Shown here: piece after piece, positions 23,904 through 26,815 of the stretch | How the letters are laid out: every line of letters begins with the position of its first letter | Numbering within the stretch: position 1 is the stretch's first letter | Assembly (NCBI RefSeq): GCF_016127575.1 | Contig: NZ_CP066018.1 | Span: forward strand, 3,420,001-3,452,000 | Source: Cupriavidus necator | GTDB taxonomy: Bacteria; Pseudomonadota; Gammaproteobacteria; Burkholderiales; Burkholderiaceae | DNA: 32,000 bases | Direction: 5' to 3' | Notes under the pieces: model-generated | Database searches by the model: none | The model's input: only the letters and a program-made list of their open reading frames with translations | Told to the model about the DNA's origin: nothing | Program-made: the position numbers and the translations under genes

Positions 23904-24740
23904 ATGGAAGCCGTCGTCTCGCGCCATGTGGCCGGCATGCCCCAGTTGGCATACACCGGCCTGTCAGAGAACTGGCTGCTGAAGACCTGCGGCGACCTGC
24001 ACTGGCGCCTGCTGGCCGCCGGCGCCGGCCTGGGGGTGCCGGACTTCCGCGATGCCGAGGGCAATCCGGTGTATGCGGCGTTCACCGCGATCCGCGTGCG
24101 CGACGCCGCGCCGCAAACGGTCGGCGAGCACGCCGGGTTCAGCATCGGTTCGCACATCGTGCCAGCGGGTGGCGTGAAGCACCTCAGCGAACATGCGGTC
24201 GACATGCATGGGGACTGCCGCGCCAGCGTGACGATGCTGTCCACCTTCATCCGCCGCACGCGTGACCGGGACAACCGCTCGGTCGTGCGCACCATGCCGA
24301 CCGTGGCCGCGCAGTGGGCCGGCGCCGGCCCGTCGGCACAGGCGGCGGAACTGTCGCTGCTGGCACGGCGTTTTCGCGGCGGGGATTGGGGCATGCATCT
24401 CGGGCTCGATCAGGCCCGGCATCGCGTCTGCCACGCCGCCGAGTACCTGCCGTGCCCCTGCAACGACTTCAATGGCGCCGACCTGCTGTACTTCGCCAGC
24501 TTCCAGGCCATGGTCGATCGCGCGGAATGGCAATGGCGCCGCGACGCGGATCCGCCCACGGTGTTCGCGCGGGACCTGTTCTTCCATGGCAACGTCAATG
24601 TCGGCGAGTCGCTGGAGCTGATCTTCTCCGCGCTGCGCGAGGACGAGGAAGGATTGACGCACTGGTGTGAGATCCGGCGCAGCCGCGACGGCGAGAAGAT
24701 CGCAGATGTGGTCACGCAGAAGCGGTGGAGGCAACGATGA
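23904..24740 (+). CDS. Double hot-dog-fold protein, LnmK / Pnap_2097-like (tentative)
   Basis: Starts 1 nt after the flavoprotein stop. Two hotdog-like halves each open with a helix-type motif (GLSENWLLKTCGDLHWRLL and DFNGADLLYFASFQAMVDRAEWQW). The family name is from memory. Confidence 0.5.
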   Translation: MEAVVSRHVAGMPQLAYTGLSENWLLKTCGDLHWRLLAAGAGLGVPDFRDAEGNPVYAAFTAIRVRDAAPQTVGEHAGFSIGSHIVPAGGVKHLSEHAVDMHGDCRASVTMLSTFIRRTRDRDNRSVVRTMPTVAAQWAGAGPSAQAAELSLLARRFRGGDWGMHLGLDQARHRVCHAAEYLPCPCNDFNGADLLYFASFQAMVDRAEWQWRRDADPPTVFARDLFFHGNVNVGESLELIFSALREDEEGLTHWCEIRRSRDGEKIADVVTQKRWRQR

Positions 24741-26815
24741 ACGCGAAGCGGGATGACCCGGCAGGCGCCCTTGAGCTGAAGCCGGTCTACGGGTCCGGCG
24801 ACCTGACTGGTCTTGGCCACCTGGGCGGCATGCCCGGCGAGGCCCCGTTCGTTCGTGGCCCCTATCCCTCCATGTACCGCGGCAGGCCATGGACCATCCG
24901 CCAGTACGGGGGATACGGCGACGCCGTGACGTCGAACCTCGCCTATCGCGAGGCCCTGAAGCAGGGCGCGCAGGGCTTGTCGGTGGCCTTCGACCTGCCG
25001 ACCCATCGCGGCTATGATTCCGACGATCCACTGGCGCAGGCCGATGTCGGCATGGCCGGCGTGGCCATCGACTCGGTCGACGATATGCGGCGCCTGTTCG
25101 ATGGCATTGCGTTGGACCGTGTGTCGGTATCGATGACCATGAGTGGTGCGGTGCTGCCAGTACTGGCAGCGTTCCTGGTCGCGGCCGAGGAATCGGGCGT
25201 CCCGTTCGAACAGCTGCGCGGCACCATCCAGAACGACATCCTCAAGGAGTTCATGGTCCGGAACACCTGGATCCATGCGCCGCAGCCGTCGCTGCGCATC
25301 GCCACCGACGTGGTCGAATGGCTGGCCGCGCATGCGCCGAAGTTCAACGGCATGTCGATCTCGGGCTATCACTTCCAGGAAGCAGGCGCCGATCCGGTGC
25401 TGGAACTGGCACTGACACTGGCCAATGCCAGGACCTATGTCGGCCTGCTGCGAGAGCGCGGCCTTGATGTCGATGCATTCTGCGGCGGACTGAGCTTCTT
25501 CTTCGGCGTCGGCAAGCCATTCTTCGTCGAGATCGCCAAGCTGCGCGCCGCGCGGCTCCTGTGGCACGACATCGTGTGCGAGCTGGGCGGCACCAGCGCG
25601 CGCGCCACCGCCATGCGCATGCATTGCCAGACTTCGGGCTGGACCCTCGCCGCGCAGCAGCCGCTCAACAATGTCGCGCGCACCACGATCGAGGCGATGG
25701 CCGCGATCTTCGGTGGTACGCAGTCGCTGCATACCAACGGCTTTGACGAGGCATTGGCTTTGCCGGGCGCGCAGGCCTCGCGGCTGGCCCGCGATACGCA
25801 GCTGATCCTCCAGCATGAGTTTGGCCTGTGCGACGTGGCGGACCCGTGGGCGGGCTCCTACCTGATCGAGTCGCTGACCGGCCGCATGGTGACGGAGGTT
25901 CGCGCGGTGCTGGCGCACATCGACGCTGAGGGTGGCATCCTGGCAGCCCTTGAATCCGGCTGGGTGCAGCGGCGCATCCACCAGAATGCGCTGCGGACGC
26001 AGGCTCGGCTCGATGCGCGGGAAGAGGTCGTGGTGGGTGTCAACCGCTACCAGGAGCCCGACGACAATGGCCAGGAATGCCTGGAGATCGACGGTACCCA
26101 GGTGCGCGTGCAACAGGCACGCCGCCTGGACGCGCTGCGCAGCCGCCGCGATGACGCCGCGGCCAGGCATGCGCTGGCGGCGCTGACCGAAGCGGCCAGG
26201 CGCGGCGGCCGCAACCTGCTAGCCTGTGCGATCGATGCCATGCGTTGCCGCGCCACGGTCGGGGAATGTACCCGGGCCCTGCTCCAGGTCTGGCCGCGCC
26301 ATACTGTCCGGGCGTCCTACGACGTTGCGCTGTACGGCACGGCTCGCGCTGGCAACACGGAATGGCTGGCGGCCTGCGAGTGCGTCAGTGCGCTGCGCGA
26401 GCGGCTTGGCCGTGCGCCCCGGATACTCGTGGCCAAGCTCGGCCAGGACGGCCACGACCGCGGTGCGAAAGCGGTGGCGGCCGGGCTTGCGGATGCCGGG
26501 TTCGTCGTCGAACTGACGCCGCTGTTCCAGTCGGCCGAGGCGGTTGTATCTGCCGCCTGCGATGGCGACTTCGATGCCATCGGCATCTCCACGCTGGGCG
26601 GCGCGCATCTGGATCTGCTGCCGGCGCTGCTACACGCCTTGCGGCAGCGTGCGCTCGAAGTGCCGGTCTTCGTCGGCGGCATTGTTCCGGCAGACCACAG
26701 GCGCTTGCTGCGCCAGTGCGGCGTGCAGGGGATTTTCGGACCGGGCACGCCGATGGAGATCATCGTGAGCACCATCGTGGCTGCGCTCACGTTGTCGAGG
26801 ATGCCTACGGCGTAA
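24737..26815 (+). CDS. Adenosylcobalamin-dependent acyl-CoA mutase, methylmalonyl-CoA-mutase-like, with substrate barrel and B12 domain in one chain
   Basis: ATGA overlap with the upstream stop. Near-canonical MCM blocks: RPWTIRQY, VAFDLPTHRGYDSD, TIQNDILKEFMVRNT, SISGYH, TNGFDEALALP. B12 motif GQDGHDRGAK. 692 aa. Confidence 0.88.
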   Translation: MNAKRDDPAGALELKPVYGSGDLTGLGHLGGMPGEAPFVRGPYPSMYRGRPWTIRQYGGYGDAVTSNLAYREALKQGAQGLSVAFDLPTHRGYDSDDPLAQADVGMAGVAIDSVDDMRRLFDGIALDRVSVSMTMSGAVLPVLAAFLVAAEESGVPFEQLRGTIQNDILKEFMVRNTWIHAPQPSLRIATDVVEWLAAHAPKFNGMSISGYHFQEAGADPVLELALTLANARTYVGLLRERGLDVDAFCGGLSFFFGVGKPFFVEIAKLRAARLLWHDIVCELGGTSARATAMRMHCQTSGWTLAAQQPLNNVARTTIEAMAAIFGGTQSLHTNGFDEALALPGAQASRLARDTQLILQHEFGLCDVADPWAGSYLIESLTGRMVTEVRAVLAHIDAEGGILAALESGWVQRRIHQNALRTQARLDAREEVVVGVNRYQEPDDNGQECLEIDGTQVRVQQARRLDALRSRRDDAAARHALAALTEAARRGGRNLLACAIDAMRCRATVGECTRALLQVWPRHTVRASYDVALYGTARAGNTEWLAACECVSALRERLGRAPRILVAKLGQDGHDRGAKAVAAGLADAGFVVELTPLFQSAEAVVSAACDGDFDAIGISTLGGAHLDLLPALLHALRQRALEVPVFVGGIVPADHRRLLRQCGVQGIFGPGTPMEIIVSTIVAALTLSRMPTA

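Follow-up and report, generated by a model that had tools for sequence, protein, structure and literature searches.

A lineage-specific Nit1C operon of Cupriavidus necator carries an LnmK-like double-hotdog protein and a B12-dependent methylmalonyl-CoA mutase as a possible acyl-donor module

What could the Nit1C gene cluster gain from two enzymes that do not belong to its canonical form? Nit1C has been defined as a set of seven genes (Podar et al., 2005), which correspond to nitBCDEFGH of Pseudomonas, to sll0783-0787 and to MSMEG_0565-0572. In various papers, it has been tied to cyanide assimilation, to the nitrogen-starvation response and to polyhydroxybutyrate accumulation, and its function was still termed obscure in 2021 (PMC7815647), some 15 years after its description. 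We analyzed a stretch of 32,000 nucleotides (nt) from Cupriavidus necator (NZ_CP066018.1, positions 3,420,001-3,452,000 of the forward strand; GC content of about 67%), called here the window and to which all positions refer unless a locus is named. In this window, a complete Nit1C cluster is followed by a gene encoding an LnmK-like double-hotdog protein of the Pnap_2097 family (23904-24740, forward strand) and by a gene encoding a single-chain adenosylcobalamin-dependent methylmalonyl-CoA mutase (24737-26815, forward strand). Most Nit1C enzymes belong to families too broad for substrate prediction; the two additional families have a narrow and known chemistry. On balance, we lean towards the view that these nine genes form a lineage-specific version of the Nit1C operon, in which the two terminal genes would constitute an acyl-donor module supplying a propionyl unit to a Nit1C acylation step. 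In the following, any extra gene located 3' of the Nit1C flavoprotein gene is called a tail, whether it is the hotdog gene alone, the hotdog gene with the mutase gene or a gene for an acyl-CoA ligase.

From position 18126 to position 26815, nine genes follow one another on the forward strand, separated by -8 to +35 nt when the most likely start codons are considered. The seven canonical Nit1C genes are all present on this strand in their usual order, and each scores above its NCBIfam cut-off. Gene 1, of the MSMEG_0572/Sll0783 family (NitB-like; 18126-18608; TIGR04044, 299 bits), has an ATG start preceded by GGAGAG. It is followed by the nitrilase of the Nit6803 family (18629-19645; TIGR04048, 592 bits for a cut-off of 503; Pfam CN_hydrolase) and by the radical S-adenosylmethionine (SAM) enzyme of the MSMEG_0568 family (19638-20741; TIGR04043, 593 bits), whose start overlaps the nitrilase stop codon. 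The start of the next gene, encoding a GNAT acyltransferase of the MSMEG_0567/Sll0786 family (20738-21292; TIGR04045, 243 bits; Pfam Acetyltransf_1), overlaps in turn the stop codon of the radical SAM gene (ATGA), and its product also matches above threshold the Pfam FeeM family of N-acyl amino acid synthases. The AIR-synthase-like protein of the sll0787 family (21289-22284; TIGR04049, 503 bits), a small protein of the MSMEG_0570 family with two invariant cysteine residues (22293-22580; TIGR04042, 123 bits) and the flavin-dependent oxidoreductase of the MSMEG_0569 family, or flavoprotein (22616-23902; TIGR04046, 711 bits; Pfam Pyr_redox_3 and Lys_Orn_oxgnase), complete the canonical set.

The initial annotation of this locus assigned both tail genes to the Nit1C operon on account of their junctions, which are indeed as it described them. 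The TGA codon of the flavoprotein gene ends at 23902 and a single c separates it from the ATG of the hotdog gene at 23904, while the ATG of the mutase gene at 24737 overlaps the hotdog stop codon (ATGA, 24737-24740) and is preceded by a GGAGG motif located 5 nt upstream. A scan of the operon for promoters and terminators returned no signal above the shuffled expectation between the Nit1C genes and the two tail genes. From these tight junctions and this uninterrupted sequence, both tail genes appear to be part of the Nit1C operon. In addition, an Rfam scan of the window matched no family, cobalamin riboswitches included, and the nine-gene string leaves no room for an unannotated gene such as one encoding a carrier protein. 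Also in line with the initial annotation, family searches found no MeaB-type chaperone, epimerase, small mutase subunit or acyl carrier protein (ACP) encoded in the window, and no adenosyltransferase either. That the canonical cluster does not include the two tail genes agrees with the literature: the original description of Nit1C mentions no conservation beyond the seven genes (PMC1199592), and a co-occurrence study reports no extra conserved genes, the canonical Pseudomonas clusters having a sigma-54 regulator (PMC11049912).

The product of the hotdog gene, a protein of 278 residues, is annotated as a putative (2R)-methylmalonyl-CoA decarboxylase/propionyl transferase. Its strongest NCBIfam match, over residues 10-271, is the Pnap_2097 model TIGR04099 (373.4 bits for a cut-off of 125), followed by TIGR04098, which describes the LnmK bifunctional acyltransferase/decarboxylase (339 bits for a cut-off of 100). 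The sole Pfam signal, LnmK_N_HDF, is below threshold (18.7 versus 26.5 bits). Its closest homologues, named "Pnap_2097 family protein" by NCBI, include those of Cupriavidus necator, which are 94-95% identical to it, and LnmK entries are its only real sequence matches among solved structures (E-value of 4e-8). An AlphaFold2 model, built from a family alignment of 66 homologues, reached a predicted local distance difference test score (pLDDT) of 93.4 and a predicted template modeling score (pTM) of 0.92. When this model was compared with the Protein Data Bank (PDB) using Foldseek, the top seven matches were all LnmK (E-values from 2e-19 to 7e-17, template modeling (TM) scores of 0.82-0.84), the next ones being acyl-ACP and acyl-CoA thioesterases (TM score of about 0.65, E-value of 1e-11). 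Together, the profile scores, the model and the structural matches bear out the fold that the initial annotation had put forward.

LnmK has been shown to decarboxylate (2R)-methylmalonyl-CoA, with Phe65 stabilizing the enolate, and Tyr62 acts as nucleophile and proton relay, accepting the propionyl group and passing it to the ACP LnmL (review PMC11350588). In a pairwise alignment, Tyr62 and Phe65 of LnmK correspond to Tyr57 and Phe60 of the window protein, and both residues are invariant in the 66 homologues. As judged from its sequence and predicted structure, the hotdog protein is thus an LnmK-class double-hotdog protein with its catalytic site intact. The setting of LnmK itself is not reproduced here: the window contains no LnmL-like ACP or phosphopantetheine (PP)-binding protein, no polyketide synthase (PKS) and no 3-hydroxy-3-methylglutaryl-CoA (HMG-CoA) synthase cassette, and no PP-binding or PKS gene is conserved across the 80 related loci described below. 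A genuine LnmK-type context with an ACP looks different, as seen in Azospirillum (L085). On plasmid pCSC3H3 of Thalassospira marina, a gene annotated as Pnap_2097 (L090, 8923-9834) is clustered with genes for an ACP and a fatty acyl-AMP ligase, along with those for a P450, a TauD dioxygenase and a large AMP-binding protein; because of this context, the Pnap_2097 family is not limited to Nit1C.

The second tail gene encodes a protein of 692 residues of the ScpA/Sbm/MUT type, which scores 977.8 bits on the methylmalonyl-CoA mutase equivalog NF006944 (cut-off of 876). Among solved relatives, it matches human MUT (719 bits), Mycobacterium tuberculosis MutB (698 bits) and Propionibacterium shermanii MutB (640 bits) far better than 2-hydroxyisobutyryl-CoA mutase (396 bits) or IcmF (262 bits). 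Its sequence contains TIRQYGG, EFMVRNT, SISGYHFQEAG and GQDGHDRG, and the alignments are in register over TIRQY, QNDILKEFMVRNT, SISGYH.QEAG and GQDGHDRG. Tyr57, Arg175, Tyr211/His212 and Asp571/His573 of the window mutase are the equivalents of Tyr89, Arg207, Tyr243/His244 and the DxHxxG motif of the P. shermanii enzyme, which we take to bind the substrate carboxylate and thioester and, in the case of DxHxxG, to provide the cobalamin ligand. These positions (the Asp-x-His of DxHxxG included) are invariant in all 74 Nit1C-linked mutases retrieved from the related loci. Collectively, these data uphold the initial proposal of an enzyme of the methylmalonyl-CoA mutase (MCM) type with intact carboxylate-binding and B12-binding residues. 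By sequence tests it would be an MCM, the equivalog score being the sole argument that separates it from ethylmalonyl-CoA mutases. The segment that includes the substrate tyrosine (residues 53-63) varies, reading RQYAGY-A-D in most linked mutases, RQYGGYGD in the window and RQYAGFST in solved MCMs. As for the missing small subunit, which the initial annotation had pointed out, none is indeed adjacent; this is unremarkable and normal for homodimeric MCMs, which are encoded by a single gene in Sinorhizobium meliloti, Escherichia coli and human (PMC6759758).

The association of both genes with Nit1C is not particular to this strain. One genome per GTDB species was scanned with an alignment of Pnap_2097 proteins, and the counts given here refer to the best 80 of the 286 relatives found. 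In every one of these 80 species, the hotdog gene lies directly 3' of the Nit1C flavoprotein gene, and in 74 of them the mutase gene comes next, with implied median gaps of 4 nt between the flavoprotein and hotdog genes and of -4 nt between the hotdog and mutase genes. Both the coupling and the arrangement are thus directly observed. The pairing with Nit1C recurs across genera, and none of the observations that the initial annotation had named as refuting its proposal was made. These loci belong to Cupriavidus, Ralstonia, Paraburkholderia, Caballeronia, Burkholderia, Trinickia, Pandoraea, Methylibium and Albidiferax, as well as to Methylophilaceae/Methylotenera and to the gammaproteobacterium Marinobacterium. 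In Paraburkholderia sp. FT54, the NCBI annotation itself lists a "Pnap_2097 family protein" and then "scpA methylmalonyl-CoA mutase" after Nit1C. Among the six loci with no mutase match, five are betaproteobacterial (L010, L043, L046, L054 and L076) and have an operon that ends with the hotdog gene; in the sixth (L012) the contig ends there. Downstream of the mutase gene, no gene is conserved, be it for MeaB, an epimerase, an ACP or a CoA-transferase, the largest downstream cluster being found in 4 of the 74 loci. In Cupriavidus lacunae (L002), a gene for TnpB, an IS200/IS605-type RNA-guided endonuclease (10850-12025, reverse strand), is inserted between the hotdog and mutase genes, which breaks the usual ATGA overlap and leaves a gap of 1.15 kb.

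The two genes do not behave as an indivisible pair. Alphaproteobacterial Nit1C loci carry the hotdog gene without the mutase gene, and Agrobacterium vitis, Tabrizicola, Sagittula and, in a rearranged form, Methylocystis have the hotdog gene behind or within Nit1C with the mutase gene absent. Conversely, no mutase gene attached to Nit1C without a hotdog gene was encountered among the loci examined. The two-gene extension of the initial annotation is therefore real as a pair, with the qualification that the hotdog gene is a recurrent accessory by itself and the mutase gene an optional add-on. This one-sided pattern among the examined loci agrees with a mutase that was recruited to feed the hotdog enzyme; lineages that have no linked mutase would presumably obtain methylmalonyl-CoA from their housekeeping MCM. 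A small DUF983 gene is found near the alphaproteobacterial clusters of this kind (L082, 6571-6933; L083, 10884-11291; L089, 1161-1598). In Tabrizicola and Methylocystis it comes immediately behind the hotdog gene, and in Sagittula its neighbor is the MocR-type regulator gene.

How common is the tail? Gene 1 was used as a Nit1C-specific marker in PLSDB plasmids and in metagenomes. It matches 516 PLSDB plasmids, and the Pnap_2097 family occurs in 61 PLSDB plasmid records. Both are found in equal numbers on plasmids of Agrobacterium (24 each), Paraburkholderia (8 each) and Rhizobium (7 each), and in Caballeronia two Pnap_2097 records are listed for five marker plasmids. None is listed for the plasmids of Klebsiella (374 with the marker), Escherichia (30), Acetobacter (17), Acinetobacter (16), Komagataeibacter (8) or Rhodococcus (4). 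Hypervirulence-type plasmids are present among the marker plasmids of Klebsiella and E. coli. The metagenome scan returned 80 loci, of which about 32 extend at least 1 kb past the flavoprotein gene; the hotdog gene is present in six of these, or about one in five, and four of the six also have the mutase gene. The share of Nit1C clusters with both genes, on which the initial annotation had called for a count, is thus that of a recurrent feature which is lineage-specific. The metagenomic loci devoid of a tail have unrelated neighbors (phospholipase C, ABC transporter, methyl-accepting chemotaxis protein, GGDEF-EAL protein, PPK2), and no common alternative tail was found in them, PrpE-like tails being undetected there. 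In a neighbor-joining tree of the flavoprotein, which has no support values, a large block of Burkholderiaceae brings tail-bearing loci together, with a tail-less trio nested inside it, and the alphaproteobacterial and Marinobacterium loci that have a tail are placed among tail-less ones. This pattern suggests that the tail was gained or lost repeatedly.

A different kind of tail occupies the same operon slot in other lineages. On plasmid pK2044 of Klebsiella pneumoniae (NC_006625.1; L086, 9265-10764), the gene for an AMP-binding acyl-CoA ligase overlaps the flavoprotein stop codon, and on a Komagataeibacter europaeus plasmid (L172, 10237-12009) such a gene starts 15 nt past the flavoprotein gene. 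Both ligases, which share only 30% identity, have propionate-CoA ligase as their top NCBIfam model (443 bits for the former and 521 bits for the latter), above acetate-CoA ligase. Two unrelated enzymatic solutions at one slot point to a short acyl-CoA, probably a C3 one, as the common product.

Rearranged or reduced variants of the cluster also occur naturally. A metagenomic locus (L095, 4150-15786) has an extra trio of a Nit1C-type GNAT, hotdog and mutase genes ahead of a complete Nit1C cluster, and in Caballeronia sp. dw_19 (L019, 7435-12912) a tight five-gene cluster consists only of gene 1 and the GNAT, flavoprotein, hotdog and mutase genes. In a metagenome-assembled genome of Paraburkholderia (L055, 8693-12882), the flavoprotein, hotdog and mutase genes stand as a trio alone among unrelated genes. 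On plasmid pRLO149_63 of Roseobacter litoralis (L084, 9311-10768), a protein of 485 residues fuses an N-terminal hexapeptide-repeat (LbH) acyltransferase to a Pnap_2097 domain; its gene belongs to a cluster for polysaccharide biosynthesis that lacks Nit1C genes.

From these observations, a mechanism can be proposed. The mutase would convert succinyl-CoA to (2R)-methylmalonyl-CoA, which the hotdog enzyme would decarboxylate to a propionyl unit at its Tyr57/Phe60 site. The propionyl unit would then feed the Nit1C acylation step, the most probable form being propionyl-CoA and its most probable user the Nit1C GNAT. Methylmalonyl-CoA mutases form the 2R isomer of their product. LnmK acts on this same isomer (PMC11350588), so that no epimerase would be needed between the two enzymes. 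A flow from succinyl-CoA through methylmalonyl-CoA to a propionyl unit would fit both this stereochemistry and the ligase tails found at the same slot. What we infer here is the direction of the flux, the propionyl nature of the product and its use by the GNAT. Delivery of the propionyl unit straight to the Nit1C intermediate, as suggested in the initial annotation, may instead run via propionyl-CoA and the GNAT. Supply to a CoA-dependent acyltransferase is favored because of the stereochemistry, the ligase tails, the sub-modules of L095 and L019, the Roseobacter fusion and the FeeM match of the GNAT.

Several points weigh against this acyl-donor proposal. The conservation of Tyr57 in the hotdog protein fits simple decarboxylation and acyl transfer equally well, and the clade-specific change beside the substrate tyrosine of the mutase means that its substrate may be shifted. 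A MeaB-type chaperone is not linked, neither in the window nor as a conserved gene across the loci. Both ligase tails are below the PrpE equivalog cut-offs, which makes their propionate substrate putative. The Paraburkholderia trio L055 keeps the flavoprotein, hotdog and mutase genes without a GNAT gene. Finally, about four fifths of the sampled metagenomic Nit1C loci carry no tail; from this it follows that a propionyl supply would be dispensable for the core Nit1C chemistry or that general metabolism would provide it.

A bolder extension can be put forward only tentatively, as we rather doubt that it holds in full: the two classes of tails would reveal a propionylation step in Nit1C whose co-substrate is a C3 acyl thioester. 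The Pnap_2097 proteins would then be the first LnmK-class enzymes that work independently of an ACP, and would hand over their propionyl group to CoA and the GNAT or else to a conserved cysteine of a small Nit1C protein, the DsrE-like product of gene 1. Gene 1 has an invariant cysteine in the motif YACRFA and a weak PDB match to a DsrE/DsrF-like protein (3mc3, E-value of 0.022), and the two invariant cysteines of the MSMEG_0570 protein lie in CYSPS and ACSSA. Both proteins could be thiol carriers.

These thiols also bear on the alternative that survives best, although we consider it unlikely, namely a direct transfer in the manner of LnmK. After decarboxylation of methylmalonyl-CoA, Tyr57 of the hotdog protein would be self-acylated and would propionylate a Nit1C intermediate or a small-protein thiol, with neither an ACP nor free propionyl-CoA involved. 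The retention of LnmK Tyr62 and Phe65 as Tyr57 and Phe60, the TIGR04098 score of 339 bits, the invariant cysteine in the DsrE-like motif of gene 1, the two in the MSMEG_0570 protein and the GNAT-less trio L055 are all compatible with it. However, an ACP or PP-binding protein is neither present in the window nor conserved in the 80 loci, the ligase tails found elsewhere would give a free acyl-CoA and not an enzyme-bound ester, and both the fusion to a hexapeptide acyltransferase and the GNAT-hotdog-mutase trio fit the hand-off of a CoA thioester better.

An improbable alternative is that the tail is co-regulated with Nit1C and chemically separate from it. As a succinate-to-propionate module, it would tune the succinyl-CoA and propionyl-CoA pools, for example under nitrogen starvation, without feeding the Nit1C product. 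The tail resembles in this respect the succinate-to-propionate pairing of a mutase with a methylmalonyl-CoA decarboxylase that is said to exist in E. coli; most Nit1C loci do without a tail, and the L055 trio stands outside a full Nit1C cluster. Such independence is difficult to reconcile with the translational coupling of the hotdog and flavoprotein genes in every one of the 80 genomes and with the fact that, among these best 80 loci, each hotdog-mutase pair is accompanied by Nit1C genes. A CoA-transferase or a MeaB partner is not linked to the tail either.

Still less probable, in our opinion, is a different chemistry altogether, in which the hotdog protein would be of the thioesterase/dehydratase type, or the mutase would act on another carboxylated acyl-CoA or would run catabolically, from methylmalonyl-CoA to succinyl-CoA, draining the acid released by the nitrilase into the tricarboxylic acid cycle. 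Thioesterases are indeed the structural neighbors that come after LnmK (TM score of about 0.65), and the linked mutases do bear their clade signature beside the substrate tyrosine; yet LnmK is clearly the better match (E-value of 2e-19 versus 1e-11, TM score of 0.83 versus about 0.65) and the LnmK-specific catalytic residues are invariant. The mutase likewise lies above the MCM equivalog cut-off and keeps all its carboxylate-binding residues, and a catabolic mutase would compete with the hotdog enzyme for one substrate. Chance juxtaposition is rejected with near certainty, as nothing was found in its favor and the order and coupling recur in 74 to 80 of the 80 genomes, over several orders and also on plasmids and in metagenomes.

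Around the operon, the window offers the following context. Divergent from it lies the gene of a MocR-type regulator (16320-17801, reverse strand), with a GntR helix-turn-helix domain and an aminotransferase fold (Pfam GntR and Aminotran_1_2). Nearly all 80 loci have a homologous gene in divergent orientation ahead of the cluster, and the effector of the regulator may be an amino compound. MocR-type regulators are present too in Klebsiella, Loktanella, Agrobacterium and Sagittula, and a sigma-54 activator takes their place in the Pseudomonas and Acinetobacter clusters. An open reading frame of 254 codons (17243-18007, forward strand), antisense to the MocR gene and without a family match, is most likely not a gene. 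Positions 1-16248 form a catabolic context with nothing tied to B12 or methylmalonyl-CoA. They comprise a leucine/isovalerate-like set (carboxyltransferase, acyl-CoA dehydrogenase, AMP-ligase and TetR regulator) and a benzoate/catechol-like set with a LysR regulator and a catechol dioxygenase, the alpha and beta subunits of a Rieske ring-hydroxylating enzyme, a reductase, a short-chain dehydrogenase/reductase, a muconate cycloisomerase and alpha/beta hydrolases. On the other side, a DUF4438 gene (27008-28072) is convergent with the operon. It opens a reverse-strand block (27008-31997) in which three to four open reading frames of 290-405 residues follow, with a good bias in GC content at third codon positions and without a match in Pfam or NCBIfam. 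Downstream of the mutase gene in the C. necator loci L001-L004, the block is absent.

The Pnap_2097 family and its arrangement with Nit1C are already named or visible in public annotation, and the bare observation is not new to databases. In the literature, we found no paper on the Pnap_2097 family or tying Nit1C to an LnmK-like protein or a B12 mutase, no description of a ligase tail of Nit1C operons among the papers searched and nothing on sbm2 in Ralstonia eutropha; the TIGR accessions lead only to the nitrilase paper. The tail and its replacement by a ligase lead to a testable hypothesis for one Nit1C co-substrate, likely propionyl, and direct attention to the GNAT for an enzyme assay. The organism, Cupriavidus necator, is genetically tractable. 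Should the propionylation reading be correct, a pathway that has gone unexplained since 2005 would have its first co-substrate defined. In addition, the use of LnmK-like double-hotdog enzymes extends beyond polyketide beta-branching, to a setting with no carrier protein.

Compared with canonical Nit1C, the operon has the same seven genes in the usual order and differs by two coupled genes added at its 3' end and by its MocR regulator, in place of the sigma-54 regulator NitA of Pseudomonas and Acinetobacter. The ligase-tailed clusters of the Klebsiella pK2044 type and of the Komagataeibacter and Acetobacter plasmids resemble it in having a tail gene coupled to the flavoprotein gene and a predicted short acyl-CoA product; they would rely on ATP-dependent activation of a free acid, whereas a mutase and a putative decarboxylase would be used here. 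Another comparison is offered by E. coli, for which Haller and co-workers reportedly described in 2000 a succinate-to-propionate pathway encoded by sbm (scpA)-argK-scpB-scpC, with a mutase beside a methylmalonyl-CoA decarboxylase. The pairing of a single-chain B12 mutase with a decarboxylase, putative in the window, is alike and would turn succinyl-CoA into a propionyl thioester, the mutase being the sole shared component. The decarboxylase ScpB of E. coli has a crotonase fold; the putative one of the present operon is a predicted double-hotdog protein, and the pair is embedded in Nit1C, with ArgK/MeaB, ScpB and ScpC absent from the window and not conserved downstream of the mutase in the 74 loci. 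The closest known relative of the hotdog protein is LnmK of the leinamycin pathway (PDB 4HZN and 6X7L), with which it shares the double-hotdog fold (TM score of 0.83), full-length homology, the equivalents of Tyr62 and Phe65 and, likely, (2R)-methylmalonyl-CoA as substrate. It differs from LnmK in sequence (about 20% identity), in length (278 residues versus about 319) and in context: in place of an LnmL-type ACP, an HMG-CoA synthase cassette and a PKS, its gene is found in a nitrilase/radical SAM operon, paired with a mutase.

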